DNA from: Thermoplasmata archaeon
Lineage (GTDB): Archaea > Thermoplasmatota > Thermoplasmata > Lutacidiplasmatales > UBA184
Direction: 5' to 3'
Assembly: GCA_028864975.1 (NCBI GenBank)
Contig: JAGWLG010000040.1
Location: forward strand, 1-28,316
Length of the DNA: 28,316 bases
This document shows positions 16,645 to 24,168 of the stretch, in pieces. Positions within the stretch are counted from its first letter, which is position 1, and each line of letters starts with the position of its first letter. The notes under the pieces are model-generated. The model saw only the letters and a program-made list of their open reading frames with translations, ran no database searches and was not told the origin of the DNA. The translations under genes were made by a program, and so were the position numbers.

Positions 16645-16914
16645 TTATCCTCCGGCTATCGAATGGAGGATATCTACTGTGTGGACGCCGGAAAGCGGAA
16701 CGGCCGTCCCGTCGCCACGGCCCGCGTCCTCCCCGTCGACGAAGACCCGAACATATCGCCGAAGGCCACCGGTCTCATCCCGCAGTTTGAGGCGCAGCCG
16801 AGGGTAGCGCCGCTCGAGCTCGTCCAGGAGCTCCTTCACATTGCTCGCGTCCAGTCGCTCAACGTCGCGCACGCCCAGTTCCCGCATCCAGGCGTCGAGA
16901 CGGACCTCGAGCAT
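16645..16914 (-). CDS. Ubiquitin-like MoaD/ThiS/SAMP protein 1
   Basis: 89 aa from ATG 16914; beta-grasp pattern RRYVRVFVDGED; C-terminal SIAGG. Confidence 0.9.
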   Translation of the reverse strand: MLEVRLDAWMRELGVRDVERLDASNVKELLDELERRYPRLRLKLRDETGGLRRYVRVFVDGEDAGRGDGTAVPLSGVHTVDILHSIAGG

Positions 16915-17188: not shown

Positions 17189-17752
17189 CTACATGGAGCG
17201 GAAGAGGTCGGACTGGGTCAGGATTCCCAGGTAGCGCCCACGCTCGGTCACCATGACGGCCGGGGCGTGCCGAAGCAGGAGGGCCGCCACGCGCGCGGGG
17301 GTCGTGGCGTCGACCTGGGGGAAGGGTTCGCGCATCACGTCGCGGACCCTGAGGCGCGGCAGGGTCGCCGAGCGCTGGGGGTCCGCCAGGCACTCTACGA
17401 CCGTGCGGTCGGTTAGCCCCCCGACGACCAGGTCCCCCTCCATGACCGGGAGCTGGCTGACGCCGTGGTGGCGCATCAGATGGGCCGCGTCGGTGAGCAG
17501 GTCGCGGGGACGTGTCGCCACGAGCGTGCGGGTCGCGAGCGCCCCGGCGCTCGCGTCGGGGGAGTCGCGCTCTTCGGACGCTTCCAGGGCCTCCAGCAGG
17601 GCGACCACGTTGCGGTACGAGGGCTCGACCAGGCCTCGCTCGATCTTCGCCACGAGCGACTGGCTGACGTGGGCCTCCCGGGCGAGCTCGCCCTGCGTGA
17701 GACCGAGCCGCACCCTTCTTCGTCGGATCTCTTTGAGCTCGGGAAAGACCAT
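17189..17752 (-). CDS. XRE-HTH + tandem CBS transcriptional regulator (COG3620-like)
   Basis: LTQGELAREAHVSQSLVAKIERG; HGVSQLPV, VRDVM, GILTQSDL. Confidence 0.93.
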   Translation of the reverse strand: MVFPELKEIRRRRVRLGLTQGELAREAHVSQSLVAKIERGLVEPSYRNVVALLEALEASEERDSPDASAGALATRTLVATRPRDLLTDAAHLMRHHGVSQLPVMEGDLVVGGLTDRTVVECLADPQRSATLPRLRVRDVMREPFPQVDATTPARVAALLLRHAPAVMVTERGRYLGILTQSDLFRSM

Positions 17753-17786
17753 GCGGACCTCGGCAGCGGCCAGGGTGGGAGGTCAC

Positions 17787-17800
17787 ATTCCTATAGGAAT
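17787..17800. promoter_or_regulatory. Perfect 14-bp palindrome in the divergent HTH-CBS/thrC promoter region
   Basis: ATTCCTATAGGAAT. TTGATAAT at 17817-17824 is a candidate thrC TATA. Confidence 0.65.
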
Positions 17801-17868
17801 ATTTCGCGCAACGCGGTTGATAATCCACCCCCAGGTAGGTCGTCCCAACGCGCGAGGCGCGAAGGACG

Positions 17869-19251
17869 ATGACGAGCGGAACCACGCCCCAGACGAGCCC
17901 CCCGGACGAACGAACCCCTGCGATCCCCTCTTCGGACCGGCCCGCGCGGCGGTCGAGCCTCGCGCAGGGGCTGGCCTGTGGAGCGTGCGGCGCCGCCTTC
18001 CCGCTCGACGGGCGGACCGCCTGCGAGCGCTGCTTCGGTCCCCTGCAGGTCGTCTACGACCTGGCCCAGCTCCGGGGGTCGCGCCCAGGTCCAGTCCTGC
18101 GCGGGCGTGAGGTCGGCCTCTGGCGCTTCCGAGAGCTCCTCCCTCCCGTATCGCCCTCCTGCGCCGCTCGCCTCTCCGTCGGGAACACCCCGCTGCGGCA
18201 CGCCAAGGAACTGGGCGCGCTCTGGGGACTCGAGGACCTCTGGCTGAAGGATGACACGGTGCTTCCTTCGGGTTCCTTCAAGGACCGTCCCGCTTCGGTC
18301 GCGGTCGCCCGGGCCGCGGACCTCGGGTTCTCTCGCGTCGGCTGCGCCTCCACGGGGAACCTCGCGGCCGCGACCGCCCGGGCCGCCGCCCGGCTGGGAC
18401 TCCCCTGCCAGGTGTTCGTCCCGAAGGACCTCCCCGCCTCCAAGCTCCTCCCGGTCCTCGCCTTCGACGGCCAGATCGTGGAGGTCGACGGGACCTACGA
18501 CGACGCGAACCGGGTCGCGAACCTCCTGGGAGAGCGGGGAGAGGTGGGGCTCGTCAACATCGGGCTGCGTCCGTACTACACGGAGGGGTCGAAGACCCTC
18601 GTCCTCGAGACGCTCGAAGCCCTGGGGTGGGAGAGTCCCGACTGGGTCGGGGTCCCGCTGGGGTCGGGAGCCCTCCTCGCCGCGACGGAGCGTGGGGTCG
18701 ACCAGGTCCGAGACCTGGGATGGCTCGACGGGTCGGGGGGGGACGCTCCCGCCTTGTTCGGTTCCCAGCCGGTCGGATGCGCTCCCATCGCGGACGCCTT
18801 CGCCCGAGGGGACGACCAGATCGTCCCCGTTCGTCGCCCCGACACGATCGCGGAGAGCCTCGCGATCGGGGACCCGGCCTCGGGGTACGAAGCGCTGAGC
18901 GCGATCCGTCGTTCGGGGGGGTTCGCGGACGCCCCGACCTCAGAAGAGGTCCGCTCGGCGATCCTGGAGACCGCCCGCCGCGAGGGCCTCTGGGTCGAGC
19001 CGGCGGGAGGGACGGTCCTCGCCTCGATCAAGCGGAAGCTCGAGCAGGGGGTCATCCACCGCACCGACCGTGTGGTCGCGTTCCTGACCGGCGCGGGATG
19101 GAAGACGCCTCAAGCCCTGGGGGCACCCAGCAGCTGGGCGCGACCGGTGCAGCACCTCCCGGCCGACGCCAGGAACACCGAGGCGCCCCGTCCCTCGCCC
19201 CGTCCGCCCGCGGCTCGCACGGCAACCCCGACGGAGGTGCGCGCATGGTGA
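17869..19251 (+). CDS. thrC: Threonine synthase family PLP enzyme with N-terminal Zn ribbon
   Basis: CGAC..CERC; GSFKDR (PLP Lys); CASTGNLA; RPYYTEGSKT; EPAGG. Confidence 0.9.
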   Translation: MTSGTTPQTSPPDERTPAIPSSDRPARRSSLAQGLACGACGAAFPLDGRTACERCFGPLQVVYDLAQLRGSRPGPVLRGREVGLWRFRELLPPVSPSCAARLSVGNTPLRHAKELGALWGLEDLWLKDDTVLPSGSFKDRPASVAVARAADLGFSRVGCASTGNLAAATARAAARLGLPCQVFVPKDLPASKLLPVLAFDGQIVEVDGTYDDANRVANLLGERGEVGLVNIGLRPYYTEGSKTLVLETLEALGWESPDWVGVPLGSGALLAATERGVDQVRDLGWLDGSGGDAPALFGSQPVGCAPIADAFARGDDQIVPVRRPDTIAESLAIGDPASGYEALSAIRRSGGFADAPTSEEVRSAILETARREGLWVEPAGGTVLASIKRKLEQGVIHRTDRVVAFLTGAGWKTPQALGAPSSWARPVQHLPADARNTEAPRPSPRPPAARTATPTEVRAW

Positions 19252-19523
19252 GCGTCTGCTTCGCCTCCGCTCTGCGGAGCGTCGCCCGGGGGCAGGCGGA
19301 GGTCGATCTCCCCGGCTTCGAGGGAGACCTCCGTGGGCTTCTGCAGGCGCTCTCCCATCAGGTGGGTCCTGCGCTGGGGGAGAGGCTCCTCGAGCAAGGT
19401 CGCATCCGCCGCTTCGTCAACGTGTACGTCGACGGCCTGGACGTGAGGTTCAGCGGCGGCCTCGAGACGCCTGTCCCGAAGGGGGCGACCGTGGACTTCA
19501 TCCCGGCCGTCGCGGGAGGGTGA
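19245..19523 (+). CDS. Ubiquitin-like MoaD/ThiS/SAMP protein 2
   Basis: GGAGG SD and ATG 19245 overlapping the thrC stop; RRFVNVYVDG; C-terminal PAVAGG. Confidence 0.93.
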   Translation: MVSVCFASALRSVARGQAEVDLPGFEGDLRGLLQALSHQVGPALGERLLEQGRIRRFVNVYVDGLDVRFSGGLETPVPKGATVDFIPAVAGG

Positions 19524-19524
19524 G

Positions 19525-20784
19525 ATGGGGCAGGAGGGGACACCGACCTCCCCGGGGGGGCCTCGCCCTGGACCTCGGGGGCCCTCGCCGCGCAGGGTCC
19601 TGCTCCTCGGTTTCGGGCACGTCGGTCGCGCGGTCGCCGAGCGGCTCCTTGAGGAGGGGCACGGAGACCCCGACTTCCCCTGGAGGGTGGTCGGCATCGT
19701 AGATTCCCGGGGTGCGCTGATCGATGAGGCGGGCGTCGACCTCCGTGCCGCCCTCTCCTCGAAGACCACCGCCGGTCGCTTGGAGGGTCCCACCTGGCGG
19801 GATTGGGACGCGCTCCAGGCGCTGGACGAACTTCGCCCCGAGGTCGTGGTCGAGGTCTCCGTCGCCGACCCCGTGAGGGGAGAGCCCGGGACCACCCACG
19901 TCCTCGCCGCCCTCGACGCCGGTGCCGACGTCGTCGCGTCCAACAAGGGCCCGTTCGCCCTCCGTCACCGAGAGGTCTTGGCGGCGGTCGCCCGGACGGG
20001 CCGTCGGGTCCGCTACGGCACCACGGTCGGGGGGATCGTACCGATCCTCGAGACCCTCGTGGAGCGTCTGCCGACCGCCGAGGTGACCCAGGTGCGGGCG
20101 GTGCTCAACGGCACGACGCAGTTCGTGCTCGACCGCATCGCCCAGGGGGCCTCCTTCGATGACGCGGTAGGCGAGGCCCGTCGAACGGGGCTCGCCGAGC
20201 CGGACCCCTCCTGGGACCTGGACGGCCACGATGCGGCGCTCAAGGCCGCGATCCTCCACAACGCGCTTTTCACCCCCCCGATCACCGCCGCCGAGGTTCC
20301 TCGGGACCCGCTCGGCCCGGACCTGATCCCCCGGCTCCAGAAGCTTCGCTCCGAAGGGAAGGGGGTGGCCTTCGTGACGACGGTGAGGGCGGGGTCGGCC
20401 GAGGTCCGATGCGAAGAGGTCCGTGCGGGGAGCCCGTGGTCCGAAGGAGGACCGGCTAACGTGTTCGAGATCTCCACGCGGAGGGTCGGGACCCTACTCC
20501 TGCAAGGCCGTGGAGCGGGGCCGCAAGCCACGGCGACGGGGGTTCTCGCGGACCTGACCTCCCTCGAAGCCCTCTCCGGGCACGACGGACCTAGGTTGCG
20601 CGGGTCGGCTTGGATCGAGCGCTCCCAGTGGCCTCCACGCCCCCCGGTGGAGCGCGACACCACCCCGGTGACCCACGACTTCGTCCATCCTGCCGTGCGG
20701 GCGAGTTGGAGTGTGCCCCGCCCCCCTCCGACGCTGCCTTCGGCTGCCGCGGCAGAAGCGTTCGAGGAGGTGCGGCCGTGGTGA
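19525..20784 (+). CDS. hom: Homoserine dehydrogenase (no ACT domain)
   Basis: LLGFGHVG, VVASNKGP, VGGIVP, LNGTT, AEPDPSWDLDGHDAALK, GRGAG..TA. Confidence 0.93.
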   Translation: MGQEGTPTSPGGPRPGPRGPSPRRVLLLGFGHVGRAVAERLLEEGHGDPDFPWRVVGIVDSRGALIDEAGVDLRAALSSKTTAGRLEGPTWRDWDALQALDELRPEVVVEVSVADPVRGEPGTTHVLAALDAGADVVASNKGPFALRHREVLAAVARTGRRVRYGTTVGGIVPILETLVERLPTAEVTQVRAVLNGTTQFVLDRIAQGASFDDAVGEARRTGLAEPDPSWDLDGHDAALKAAILHNALFTPPITAAEVPRDPLGPDLIPRLQKLRSEGKGVAFVTTVRAGSAEVRCEEVRAGSPWSEGGPANVFEISTRRVGTLLLQGRGAGPQATATGVLADLTSLEALSGHDGPRLRGSAWIERSQWPPRPPVERDTTPVTHDFVHPAVRASWSVPRPPPTLPSAAAAEAFEEVRPW

Positions 20785-21848
20785 CCCCGGCGCTGGCAGG
20801 GACGGCCCCGCTCGGCCCGAGGTTCGAGGAGCCCGCAGCCCCCAACCCCGCGATCCGCGCATGCTCGAGGAAGGCCAAGGCCCCGCCGCTTCCCGACCTC
20901 GTCCCTCCCGGCGAGCACCCCACCTCGGTGCGCGTGCGGGCCCCTCTCAGCATCGCGAACGTCGGACCTGGCTTCGACCATTTCGGCCTCTGCCTCGAGG
21001 GCCCTGCGGACGTGCTCGAGCTTCGGACCTCCCGTGCCTCCGGGCTCGAGGTCTACGGCGACGCTGTCGTCCCGCGGGACCTGCGTCGCAACGTAGCGAC
21101 CGTCGCGGCCCAGGAGGTCTACCGTCAGAGCGGGCTCAGGTTCCGGGTGGAGGCGCGGCTCTTCAAGGGCTACCATGGCGGAAGCGGTATCGGCTCCAGC
21201 GGGGCTTCGGCGGTCGCCGGCGCCCTCGCGGCCGCCGCGCTGCTCGGACTGGACCCTCGGGAGGGACCGACCCTGGACCTGGTCGTTCACGCGGCGTTGT
21301 GCGGCGAGCGGGTGGCCTCGGGCAGTGCCCACCTCGACAACGTGGCGGCGAGCCTCTTCGGAGGTTTCGTCCTCGTGGAGGGGTTGGACCCTCCCATCGT
21401 CCATCGGCTGCCGACCCCCGACGGAGCCCGGATCATCGTGGCGCTACCCACCCTACGGGTCTCCACATCCAAGGCCCGGGCCCTCTTGCCCGCGACCGTC
21501 CCGCACCAGGACGCGGTCGCGAACGTGGCGAGGGCGAGCGCGCTCGTCCATGGATTGCTCACCGGCGACCTGGAGCAGGTGGGACGCAATCTTTCTGACC
21601 GGCTGGCGGAGCCCTACCGGGAGCCCCTGGTCCCGGGGCTCGCCTCCGCGAAGCAGGCCGCCCTCGAGGCGGGTGCCTGGGGCGTCGCCCTGGCGGGGAG
21701 CGGGCCCGCTGTCTTCGCCCTCGGTCCCCCGGACCGGACGGAGGCCGTGGGGGCAGCCCTTCGAGAAGGGTTTGGACGCGCCGGGGTCCCTTGCCACACC
21801 TTCACGAGCCAGGTGGGGGAGGGGGCTTCTCTGGTGGGTTGGAGCTAG
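20778..21848 (+). CDS. thrB: Homoserine kinase (GHMP family)
   Basis: SIANVGPGFD, GIGSSGAS, HLDNVAASLFGG, LAGSGP. GGAGG 7 nt before GTG 20778. Confidence 0.93.
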   Translation: MVTPALAGTAPLGPRFEEPAAPNPAIRACSRKAKAPPLPDLVPPGEHPTSVRVRAPLSIANVGPGFDHFGLCLEGPADVLELRTSRASGLEVYGDAVVPRDLRRNVATVAAQEVYRQSGLRFRVEARLFKGYHGGSGIGSSGASAVAGALAAAALLGLDPREGPTLDLVVHAALCGERVASGSAHLDNVAASLFGGFVLVEGLDPPIVHRLPTPDGARIIVALPTLRVSTSKARALLPATVPHQDAVANVARASALVHGLLTGDLEQVGRNLSDRLAEPYREPLVPGLASAKQAALEAGAWGVALAGSGPAVFALGPPDRTEAVGAALREGFGRAGVPCHTFTSQVGEGASLVGWS

Positions 21849-24168
21849 GGAGGGCTCGACGATCCGAGGGGAGAAGGGACGAGGTTCCGCCGTCGCCCTG
21901 CGACAGTGCCCTCTGAGCGGCCTCGGGAGGTCGCTCCGCGCGCCAGGGTCCCGTGAGCGATCGCTCGACCAAGGGGTCCGCCGTCGTCGCAAGGCCCCTC
22001 GGGACTCCTGGCGGCGGAGTGGAGGAGGCGCCGGTGGCGGCGTGGAGCGGAAGCGTGAAATGGAATCGGGACCCCTTCCCCGCCTCTCCCGAGCTTTCGA
22101 CCCAGATGCGCCCTCCGTGGCGCTCGACGACCTTCTTGCAGATGGCCAGCCCGATCCCGGTCCCGGGGTACTCCTGACGAGTATGCAATCTCTGGAAGAT
22201 CGCGAAGATCCGTTCGTGGTACTCGGGAGCGATGCCGATCCCGTGGTCCTCGAGGACGAAGTGCCAGGAGCCCTCTTCCTGCACGGCCGAACAGCGAACC
22301 CAGGGGCGCAGCTCACCATGGAACTTGATCGCGTTGCCCGCGAGGTTCTGGAAGAGCTGGAGGAGCTGGGTGCGGTCCCCCTGGACCGTGGGGAGCTCCC
22401 CCCGGGCCACCTCCGCATGGGATTCTTGGATCGCGGGGAGCAGATTCGTCAGCGCCAGGTCGAAGACCTCGTTCAGGTTCACATCGCCCCACGGCGCGGC
22501 CGAGCGGTTCAGGCGAGAGTACGCGAGGAGGTCGTCGATGAGCTGGCTCATGCGCTTCGCGCCCTCCGTGGCGTAATTGATGAACTCGTTCGCTTCGGCG
22601 TCCAGACGGTCCTGGTATCTCGTCTGGAGGAGCTGGGTGAAGCTCGCGACCATCCGGAGCGGTTCCTGCAGGTCGTGCGAGGCCACGTAGGCGAACTGCT
22701 GGAGCTCCCGGTTCGACCGGACCAGTTCGGCCTCCCTCTGCTTCAGCGCCGAGATCAGGGCCATGCGCTCGGTGTCGTCCTGGGCCGTGCCCACCATGCG
22801 CACCGGCTTGCCGTCGCGCACCTCCACCACCTTCCCCCGCCCGATGACCCAGCGCACTTCTCCGGTCGGAAGTCGGATCCGGAAGTGGCTCGCGGACTCG
22901 GGGGCCGAGAGGGCCTTCGGGTCGCTCGCGATCTGACGCAGCCCGGCCTGGCTCATTTCGCGGTCCTCGGAGACCGTACGCTCGTAGGCTTTCTCGAGGG
23001 TCACCTCGAACCGCTCCTTCCCGAACCCGTAGATCTCGAACATCTCGTCGGACCAGGTGATCTTGCCGGTGGAGAGGTCATAGTCCCAGCTCCCTAGCCG
23101 TGCGATGGCCTCGGCGTCGGAAAGGAGCTTGGTCCGCTCCCGGACCTTCTCCTCGAGGTTCTGCCTCGCGCTCTCGGCCGCCTCCTCGGCCTTCTCGTGC
23201 TGGAGCACCTCCGCCGCAGCGAGCAACGCGGCGGCAATGATCGACCCGATGTAGAGGCGAAGGGAGAACAGGTCGGAGAGGGGGGCCATCGCGGCGAACG
23301 GTCCGCGACCCAGTACGGTCCCGGTGATCGCTACCAGGGAAACGGCCGTGGCCGAAACGGCGGCTCCCAGCGACCGGTACCGTAGAGCTGCCCAAAGGAC
23401 CGGCGGGAGCAGGAGCAGAGCGGTTCCGGAGACGCCTCGATAGGGGAACGCCGATGTCAAGAAGACCACCCCGCTGAGCAGCGAGACCACCAGGGCCACC
23501 ACGAAGGTCTCCCCCGCCGTGCGCCCCGCGATGGCCCTTCGCAGCCCGTTCCGGCCTTGGGCCAAGAGGATCAGGAGCGGTGTGAACTCGAGCGCGCCCA
23601 CCGCATCTCCCAGCCACCACGTCGACCAGAGGGAAGAGTAGTTCGCGATCGAAGCGAGATGAGCGGCCACCAGAGCCGCGGCCCCAATGGTCGCCGCGAT
23701 ACTGGTCGCGACAAGGGCCCCAAGCCCGAGGAAGATCAGGATGTCCCGAGGCTGCTCGGTGAAGCGGGTCCCCCGCGCGAACCGGATCGTGAGGTAGGCC
23801 GCCACGAGCCCTTCCAGCGTGTCGCCTCCGGCAATGACGATCGAGCTCCAGGGGTCCCCCGTGGTCCAAACGTTGGCGAGGAAGGAGGCGACCGCGATCG
23901 CCGGCCAAACATCGTAGCCCAAGACAAGGAAGAGGGCGATCGCGACCCCGGAGGCCGGCCAGAAGACCGAGACGCTCGCGTTGCTCACGGCGAGGAGGAG
24001 GCCGAGCTTGGCGGCCGCAAGGTATCCCGCCCCAGAGCCTAAGAGGATCAGGCCGGTGCGGACGGTGGAGCGCAGGTCAGGAGACGACCGATCTGTTGCC
24101 GAAGGGTTGGCGTGGGGGTCTTCTGCCGTCGGACCCAGAGGCGTGCGCCCCGGTGCCTCGGTCATCAT
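21802..24168 (-). CDS. MASE1-PAS sensor histidine kinase
   Basis: MASE1-type TM region (FWPASG, WWLGDAVG), PAS (GSWDYDL..WSDE), H-box SHDLQEPLR, N/G boxes (NAIKF, DHGIGI, GTGIGL). Confidence 0.93.
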   Translation of the reverse strand: MMTEAPGRTPLGPTAEDPHANPSATDRSSPDLRSTVRTGLILLGSGAGYLAAAKLGLLLAVSNASVSVFWPASGVAIALFLVLGYDVWPAIAVASFLANVWTTGDPWSSIVIAGGDTLEGLVAAYLTIRFARGTRFTEQPRDILIFLGLGALVATSIAATIGAAALVAAHLASIANYSSLWSTWWLGDAVGALEFTPLLILLAQGRNGLRRAIAGRTAGETFVVALVVSLLSGVVFLTSAFPYRGVSGTALLLLPPVLWAALRYRSLGAAVSATAVSLVAITGTVLGRGPFAAMAPLSDLFSLRLYIGSIIAAALLAAAEVLQHEKAEEAAESARQNLEEKVRERTKLLSDAEAIARLGSWDYDLSTGKITWSDEMFEIYGFGKERFEVTLEKAYERTVSEDREMSQAGLRQIASDPKALSAPESASHFRIRLPTGEVRWVIGRGKVVEVRDGKPVRMVGTAQDDTERMALISALKQREAELVRSNRELQQFAYVASHDLQEPLRMVASFTQLLQTRYQDRLDAEANEFINYATEGAKRMSQLIDDLLAYSRLNRSAAPWGDVNLNEVFDLALTNLLPAIQESHAEVARGELPTVQGDRTQLLQLFQNLAGNAIKFHGELRPWVRCSAVQEEGSWHFVLEDHGIGIAPEYHERIFAIFQRLHTRQEYPGTGIGLAICKKVVERHGGRIWVESSGEAGKGSRFHFTLPLHAATGASSTPPPGVPRGLATTADPLVERSLTGPWRAERPPEAAQRALSQGDGGTSSLLPSDRRALPSSNPPEKPPPPPGS

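Follow-up and report, generated by a model that had tools for sequence, protein, structure and literature searches.

In Streptomyces albulus, homocysteine is made by a route that comprises a carrier protein (MetO), a ligase (MoeZ), a hydrolase (Mec) and a synthase (MetM) (Hasebe et al. 2024, Appl Environ Microbiol 90:e01247-24, as cited in GapMind 2026). As summarized there, MetM is a homologue of threonine synthase (ThrC) that takes the MetO thiocarboxylate and O-phosphohomoserine as its substrates, and it is often misannotated as threonine synthase (GapMind 2026). As far as the published summaries go, an S-adenosylmethionine (SAM) riboswitch lies upstream of S. albulus metM, metO-like genes adjoin the genes for MetM homologues, Bacillus subtilis ThrC is 33% identical to MetM, and the cyanobacterial relatives of MetM that are described have no SAM riboswitch. 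In this report, we examined a stretch of 28,316 nucleotides from a Thermoplasmata archaeon (hereafter the window; contig C35 of a 3.6-Mb assembly that has a G+C content of 67% and is 89.6% complete); the closest named relatives of its proteins are from Thermoplasmata archaea. On the forward strand, positions 17869-21848 hold four coupled, head-to-tail genes for a ThrC-family, pyridoxal-phosphate (PLP)-dependent enzyme, a ubiquitin-like protein (Ubl), homoserine dehydrogenase (Hom) and homoserine kinase (ThrB). We conclude that this operon is probably (at a rough probability of 0.8) an archaeal MetM/MetO locus, which would form homocysteine from O-phosphohomoserine by way of a Ubl thiocarboxylate.

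An earlier note on this DNA had pictured the PLP enzyme performing a gamma-replacement with the thiocarboxylated Ubl to give homocysteine, and had presented this as a new methionine-precursor pathway. The chemistry it envisaged is the best-supported reading of the operon, on the grounds of the clade to which the enzyme belongs, the conserved adjacency of enzyme and carrier genes, the sulfur-relay genes of the genome, the failure to find MetA, MetX or HcyBio, and regulation of a methionine/SAM type. The claim of novelty has to be given up: the MetM/MetO/Mec/MoeZ pathway was published for S. albulus in 2024 and is already in GapMind. The operon is an archaeal member of this known route. Three features go beyond the precedent, namely the confinement of hom and thrB to the operon, the lack of any canonical ThrC among the genes found, and a divergent regulator with helix-turn-helix (HTH) and CBS domains that is accompanied by a palindrome. 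The operon most likely holds all of the steps that lead from aspartate semialdehyde to homocysteine, and its genes are the following.

17869-19251, + strand: candidate MetM-type homocysteine synthase, a ThrC-family PLP enzyme (Pfam and NCBIfam matches, clade, signature residues)
19245-19523, + strand: putative MetO-type sulfur-carrier protein of the ThiS/MoaD fold, 92 aa (ThiS PF02597, C-terminal Gly-Gly)
19525-20784, + strand: homoserine dehydrogenase (PF00742 and PF03447)
20781-21848, + strand: homoserine kinase, GHMP type (NF002288 and TIGR00191)

These four genes are present as the earlier note had read them, with the Ubl gene coupled between the thrC-like gene and hom. The ATG of the Ubl gene overlaps the stop codon of the thrC-like gene (ATGGTGA) and is preceded by GGAGGTG, and a single base separates the Ubl stop codon from the ATG of hom. 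The likely start of thrB is a GTG at 20778 or 20781, which overlaps the hom stop codon and has GAGGAGGTG upstream; a start inside the gene, at 20928, is a conceivable alternative. Every downstream start in the operon has a GGAGG-type ribosome site. The only tblastn match to hom in the genome is the one in the operon, and the operon likewise has the only copy of thrB that was found (279 bits on NF002288, with a cut-off of 194, and 190 bits on TIGR00191, which is also above its cut-off).

The pairing of enzyme and carrier extends well beyond the window. The carrier gene lies directly downstream of the enzyme gene in all 14 related loci examined, of which ten are from sampled Thermoplasmata genomes, two from metagenomic Thermoplasmata contigs, one from a Heimdallarchaeota contig and one from Nonomuraea; because of this recurrence, the arrangement is not due to chance. 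The Nonomuraea gene was found by a translated search of a plasmid collection, in a mislabelled 11.85-Mb record. This best match has a SAM riboswitch upstream (68.7 bits) and a gene for a 91-aa, Gly-Gly-ended carrier downstream. Its orthologues are found in 80 actinomycete loci at 76-92% identity, about 45 of them from Streptomyces species, where the identity is 76-78%. The carrier gene is downstream in all 80 of these loci, among which S. albulus is not included, and a SAM riboswitch was present in all 20 that were tested.

The content of the archaeal loci varies around this pair. The Heimdallarchaeota locus (L015) has an aspartate kinase gene upstream and a gene for a ThiF-rhodanese protein downstream. 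In another Thermoplasmata family (f7), the metM-metO pair occurs without hom and thrB, and the genomes have a separate, canonical hom-thrC pair. On one Thermoplasmata contig (L014, 9759-13353), the operon runs on into genes for aspartate kinase, a rhodanese/metallo-beta-lactamase protein and both halves of MetE, a string that amounts to a near-complete aspartate-to-methionine set.

The MetM-type enzyme is 460 aa long and matches PF00291 at 1.3e-66. It has a CxxC...CxxC ribbon (zinc ribbon) at its N-terminus and, at residue 136, an SFKDR Schiff-base lysine motif that aligns with the lysine of ThrC. The motifs CASTGNLA and RPYYTEGSKT occur at residues 159 and 234; the earlier note had linked such motifs (CASTGNLA and RPYY.EGSKT) to ThrC paralogues with MoaD-like neighbours, a link borne out by both the motifs and the 14 carrier-linked loci. 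The enzyme is 40% identical to the riboswitch-controlled Nonomuraea enzyme (263 bits) and 37-42.5% identical to the 80 actinomycete orthologues, including those of the roughly 45 Streptomyces species. The identity between the Nonomuraea gene and the other ThrC-family paralogue of the archaeal genome, here called P0005, is only 31%.

A maximum-likelihood tree of 46 sequences (quick search, LG+G4) places the window enzyme, the Nonomuraea gene and every Ubl-linked archaeal gene in one clade of 21 rows, with a support of 100 in the Shimodaira-Hasegawa-like approximate likelihood-ratio test. This clade also takes in sequences whose sources are named as Armatimonadota, Bathyarchaeia, Thermoproteota and Heimdallarchaeota. 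Outside it lie the Priestia thrC, which is part of a hom-thrC-thrB operon, the sole ThrC of other Thermoplasmata families, and the P0005 type. All members of the clade share five residues that set them apart from canonical ThrC: L165, R234, Y237, S241 and S266. When aligned to Thermus ThrC, these fall at T88, N157, R160, Q164 and N188. Thus, Leu, Tyr and Ser stand at Thermus T88, R160 and N188, which we take to be the pocket for the substrate phosphate, and an Arg arises three residues before the Tyr. In ThrC, retention of the phosphate steers the reaction toward the addition of water at C-beta. A phosphate pocket rebuilt in this manner would fit a different reaction outcome.

The carrier matches ThiS (PF02597) at 1.1e-08, and its C-terminus reads ...AVAGG, followed immediately by the stop codon. 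Its identity is 50% to the Nonomuraea carrier and, as a median, about 47% to the 80 actinomycete carriers. The Gly-Gly end is shared by the archaeal carrier and those Streptomyces and Nonomuraea carriers whose ends were read. The MetO-like carrier of Kitasatospora sp. CMC57 (L119, 2814-3089) ends in ...AVAGGC, with one extra Cys after the Gly-Gly; this residue may have to do with the requirement for Mec that has been reported in the maturation of the carrier.

Elsewhere in the genome are genes that could serve such a pathway. The sole ThiF gene, on contig C75, encodes a fusion of an N-terminal ThiS domain, ThiF and a C-terminal rhodanese domain, and is 51% identical to the operon-encoded activating enzyme of the Heimdallarchaeota locus. 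A Prok-JAB gene (6.1e-21) lies between a CysM-like gene and this activating-enzyme gene. Because C75 has the ThiF-rhodanese fusion beside a Prok-JAB protein, both a MoeZ-type activator and a Mec-type hydrolase appear to be available. The three genes for the CysM-like protein, Prok-JAB and the ThiS-ThiF-rhodanese fusion stand in a row (C75, about 32048-35080; L004 and L016) that looks like a mycobacterial-type CysO/CysM/Mec/MoeZ cysteine system with the carrier fused to the activating enzyme. A split MetE and SAM synthetase are also present. The gene for cystathionine beta-synthase adjoins a gamma-lyase-like gene, a pairing that suggests traffic from methionine to cysteine.

From these components we infer a sequence of chemical steps, along with the identities of the activating enzyme and the hydrolase. 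Hom would reduce aspartate semialdehyde to homoserine, which ThrB would phosphorylate to O-phosphohomoserine. Charging of the carrier would fall to the one MoeZ-type enzyme that the genome has, a ThiF-rhodanese protein whose gene lies away from the operon. The MetM-type enzyme would then eliminate the gamma-phosphate and add the C-terminal thiocarboxylate of the MetO-type carrier at C-gamma. After an S-to-N acyl shift, the JAMM protease of the genome would hydrolyse the carrier-homocysteine adduct, and the split MetE would methylate the homocysteine to methionine. The divergent HTH-CBS regulator, by acting at the palindrome ATTCCTATAGGAAT, probably controls expression of the operon, an arrangement that would replace the actinomycete SAM riboswitch.

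The distribution of the MetM type among related archaea was surveyed in 121 Thermoplasmata genomes, evenly drawn from the class (one unpublished genome, G084, is counted in tallies only). With the type defined by an identity of at least 48%, 13 genomes have it; MetX, MetA and HcyBio are found in 10, 15 and 26, respectively. The overlap is restricted to one genome, G059, which also has HcyBio; neither MetX nor MetA accompanies the MetM type in any of the 13. This complementary distribution is observed rather than statistically proven to be meaningful, and it is consistent with a role in homocysteine synthesis. In the family to which the window belongs (14 genomes), hom is present in exactly the four MetM-type genomes, each time within the MetM locus, and is absent from the ten other relatives; in this family, hom and thrB occur only inside the MetM operon. 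Therefore, in this lineage the locus is not a threonine operon that acquired a Ubl. Rather, these occurrences indicate a self-sufficient set of genes, leading from aspartate semialdehyde to homocysteine, that lineages acquire or lose as a whole.

These results raise the question of how threonine is obtained. A canonical ThrC could be found in none of the four family genomes with the MetM type (that of the window, 89.6% complete; G039, 98%; G031, 97%; and G047, 97%), and G039 showed no other ThrC-family gene above weak scores. The paralogue P0005 (contig C13:659-1879, L002) passes the cut-off of NF006050 "threonine synthase". Its type is present in 11 of the 14 family genomes, eight of which, G084 among them, are without homoserine dehydrogenase, and ThrB was found in none of the five of these eight that were tested. 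The TIGR02535 matches in the genomes tested for ThrB score about 200 bits, below the cut-off of 446, and look like ordinary phosphoglycerate mutase. Because the P0005 type persists in genomes that lack homoserine dehydrogenase, its real substrate is in doubt, and a function as an O-phosphohomoserine-dependent threonine synthase seems unlikely. The neighbours of P0005-type genes are uninformative on function; in Chlorohelix, a relative (L050) immediately follows a gene for phosphoglycerate dehydrogenase. We had considered a division of labour in which P0005 is the threonine synthase and the window enzyme is MetM, and dropped it in light of the eight hom-less genomes that keep the P0005 type, five of them tested and without ThrB. 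Threonine in the lineage of the window would thus be either imported, as the hom-less relatives must do, or partly made by the MetM-type enzyme.

Some of the checks that the earlier note had proposed were made here. The search for a second thrC turned up a paralogue, P0005, and no canonical ThrC in the genome. As for a standard methionine pathway, MetA, MetX and HcyBio were all searched for and none was found in the 89.6%-complete assembly, which does have three Cys/Met-PLP enzymes of unassigned specificity. Phylogeny sets the enzyme within a Ubl-linked clade and apart from canonical ThrC.

The region upstream of the operon adds a regulatory dimension to the locus. Its features, together with a second Ubl gene, are as follows.

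17189-17752, - strand: divergent regulator with HTH_3 (XRE-type) and CBS-pair domains, 187 aa (Pfam matches)
17787-17800, no strand: perfect 14-bp palindrome ATTCCTATAGGAAT, a candidate operator (uniqueness in the genome, conservation in related loci)
17817-17824, + strand: AT-rich box TTGATAAT, possibly a TATA element of the operon promoter, as read from the letters
16645-16914, - strand: second Gly-Gly-ended Ubl, 89 aa, SAMP1/MoaD-like (translation ends ...SIAGG)

The palindrome lies in the 116-bp gap between the regulator and the operon (17753-17868), 35 nt from the start codon of the regulator and 69 nt upstream of the ATG of the MetM-type gene. It is unique in the 3.6-Mb genome, even when two mismatches are allowed. 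A wider regulon was sought without success: within two mismatches, no second copy exists genome-wide, including upstream of SAM synthetase, MetE and the sulfur-relay cluster. Ten of 11 Thermoplasmata loci have the form ATTC-N6-GAAT between the regulator and metM, once in the high-G+C family and twice in family f7. Related loci totalling 154.9 kb contain 18 copies of this form, 16 of them inside the regulator/metM gaps, which make up 2.9 kb. AT-rich boxes like TTGATAAT come after the palindrome in the related loci.

Of the 121 sampled genomes, 65 have the regulator family, most often in a single copy; among the 13 with a MetM-type gene, 10 have the regulator next to that gene and divergent from it. 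Where the regulator lies away from metM (18 loci), its divergent neighbour is the archaeal SAM synthetase in nine (PF01941, E-values down to 1e-167), and the ATTC-N6-GAAT palindrome adjoins the regulator gene in ten. Because one conserved site pairs this protein with either SAM synthetase or metM-metO, it is most simply viewed as a methionine/SAM transcription factor, for which we infer the ligand and the sign of control. Such pairings, of regulator and palindrome beside metM-metO or SAM synthetase, were seen in different families (L061, L062, L064-L066, L069-L071 and L077). In two genomes of another family, MetX has a weaker paralogue of the HTH-CBS regulator at a distance of 1-4 kb (L072, on contig C28 of G106, and L073, on contig C57 of G066), a hint of a further tie between the regulator family and methionine genes. 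CBS pairs often bind adenosyl ligands, SAM among them; comparison of this CBS pair with solved structures matched generic CBS proteins and gave no ligand. The regulator is a candidate SAM sensor that would stand in place of the actinomycete SAM riboswitch. No Rfam family, and thus no SAM riboswitch, scored above threshold anywhere in the window. Because the published cyanobacterial relatives are likewise without it, the riboswitch is probably not a defining feature of MetM systems. Our literature search found no description of an HTH-CBS methionine regulator in archaea.

Two other genes of the window adjoin these features. The second Ubl gene sits downstream of the regulator, and a 61%-identical copy occupies the equivalent place in the closest relative, L013, only. 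Its NCBIfam matches, SAMP1 and moaD_arch, are both below cut-off, and we regard it as a candidate only for membership in the system. At the other end of the operon, a 788-aa MASE1-PAS-HisKA-HATPase sensor kinase (21802-24168, - strand) is convergent with thrB and overlaps its end by 47 nt.

Several findings weigh against assigning the operon to homocysteine synthesis. The enzyme scores 201.6 bits on TIGR00260 "threonine synthase", above the cut-off of 167.1; it matches solved ThrC structures better than P0005 does, with 145-177 bits against those from Thermus, Bacillus, Aquifex and Mycobacterium; and every one of its relatives that bears a name is annotated "threonine synthase". Further, the presence of hom and thrB beside it is the classical context for threonine synthesis. 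The link to the characterized S. albulus MetM (UniProt A0A059WBP2) is indirect, in that it passes through Streptomyces and Nonomuraea orthologues recognized by their riboswitches and carriers. The activating enzyme and the JAMM hydrolase are unlinked to the operon and lie beside a CysM-like gene, so that cysteine synthesis may be their primary task. The assembly is no more than 89.6% complete, and the sampled genomes are interrelated, so that independent events are fewer than genomes. Finally, of the three Cys/Met-PLP enzymes with unassigned specificity, two score below every curated cut-off, and one could in principle make cystathionine or homocysteine from O-phosphohomoserine.

The TIGR00260 score, the hom/thrB context and the uniform annotation of the relatives would all be expected of an ordinary threonine operon, in which the enzyme is a threonine synthase and the Ubl is employed in regulation, protein tagging, molybdopterin synthesis or tRNA thiolation; the best NCBIfam match of the Ubl, SAMP1, leans the same way, though it is below the cut-off. 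We nevertheless consider this explanation very improbable, and a purely regulatory role for the Ubl, which had been raised before as the alternative, unlikely. The clade differs from canonical ThrC, with systematic changes at the residues presumed to form the phosphate pocket, and the Ubl is 47-50% identical to carriers encoded downstream of SAM-riboswitch-controlled actinomycete genes. Further, the enzyme-Ubl pair of family f7 stands without hom or thrB in genomes that have a canonical hom-thrC pair of their own, and some of the related loci carry methionine genes or the gene for an activating enzyme. It is also very improbable that the enzyme performs gamma-replacement on O-phosphohomoserine with free sulfide or some other nucleophile, leaving the carrier dispensable or feeding a different product. 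Sulfhydrylases commonly take sulfide in vitro, and the activating enzyme of this genome is unlinked to the operon; against these points stand the strict adjacency of enzyme and carrier genes across archaea and bacteria (14 of 14 and 80 of 80 loci) and the carrier dependence of the published MetM/MetO system.

A third possibility is that the enzyme is bifunctional, yielding homocysteine with the charged carrier and threonine (by addition of water at C-beta) without it, and is the only threonine synthase of the lineage. This alternative, which we hold to be unlikely, gains plausibility in this archaeon, compared with bacteria, from the failure to find a canonical ThrC in the lineage. The lack of canonical ThrC in the four MetM-type family genomes, the absence from G039 of any other ThrC-family gene above weak scores, and the persistence of the P0005 type in eight hom-less family members (ThrB being absent from the five tested), which makes it an unlikely threonine synthase, would all fit bifunctionality, as would the sharing of one operon by hom and thrB. 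Moreover, in the published account, a cyanobacterial MetM homologue that is 51.6% identical to MetM formed threonine weakly from O-phosphohomoserine in vitro. On the other hand, the signature residues are identical in the window's family and in f7, which has its own canonical hom-thrC pair, and there is thus no sign of adaptation to a second role. A regulator that is elsewhere paired with SAM synthetase would tie the supply of threonine to methionine/SAM status, and ten relatives in the same family are without hom, so that threonine auxotrophy is evidently tolerated. In its most extended and equally unlikely form, this idea would make the operon the only source of O-phosphohomoserine in the family and the MetM-type enzyme its only consumer, with one active site producing both homocysteine and threonine, the split set by the supply of charged carrier and the whole module switched by a SAM-sensing HTH-CBS factor.

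If the operon is indeed a MetM/MetO locus, several consequences follow. The origin of homocysteine in many archaea has long been incompletely explained, and MetM/MetO would fill this gap in several Thermoplasmata lineages and, to judge from gene neighbours, in Heimdallarchaeota as well. Because all named relatives are labelled "threonine synthase", metabolic reconstructions would wrongly predict threonine prototrophy and methionine auxotrophy for these organisms. Two leads also emerge: a protein regulator that may be the archaeal counterpart of a bacterial SAM riboswitch, and a second, widespread paralogue labelled "threonine synthase" that has been kept by genomes which cannot produce the substrate it is supposed to use.

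The proposed system can be set beside several others. HcyBio (COG1900, MA1821-type), which starts from aspartate semialdehyde, likewise provides homocysteine to archaea that have no O-acylhomoserine routes; it belongs to an unrelated protein family, was not found in the window genome, and accompanies the MetM type in only 1 of the 13 sampled genomes that have the latter. The HcyBio enzyme of Methanocaldococcus carries a SAM-binding CBS pair. With canonical threonine synthase, the window enzyme shares its fold, the SFKDR motif of the PLP lysine and the expected substrate; it differs in its separate clade, its N-terminal zinc ribbon and the changed positions of its pocket. Wolinella succinogenes is said, in work of Krishnamoorthy and Begley from 2011, to obtain homocysteine from the thiocarboxylate of a ubiquitin-like protein using HcyS/HcyF/HcyD and MetY. 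That system, unlike the one described here, depends on O-acetylhomoserine and a fold-type I sulfhydrylase, and neither MetX nor MetA was found in the window genome. The CysM/CysO/Mec/MoeZ system of Mycobacterium tuberculosis employs a fold-type II PLP enzyme whose sulfur nucleophile is a protein thiocarboxylate, with a JAMM hydrolase to resolve the adduct. Protein-thiocarboxylate sulfur and an O-phospho amino acid substrate would be common to it and the present operon, and a CysM-type cluster is present on C75 of the window genome. The mycobacterial reaction is a beta-replacement on O-phosphoserine by an enzyme of the CysK/CysM family, as opposed to a gamma-replacement by one of the ThrC family.

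The closest counterpart is the MetM/MetO system of S. albulus. The window enzyme comes from an archaeon and shares only about 40% of its residues with the Nonomuraea and Streptomyces orthologues; its gene has a divergent HTH-CBS regulator and a palindrome instead of a SAM riboswitch; and its operon includes hom and thrB, the only copies in the genome, with no canonical ThrC found alongside. Further, the carrier ends exactly at Gly-Gly and needs no C-terminal trimming. The two systems nonetheless share a ThrC-homologous PLP enzyme followed by a ThiS-like carrier of the Gly-Gly type, with O-phosphohomoserine as the expected substrate. Both have a MoeZ-type activator and a JAMM hydrolase in the genome, and the archaeal enzyme falls within the very clade that contains the Streptomyces and Nonomuraea orthologues.

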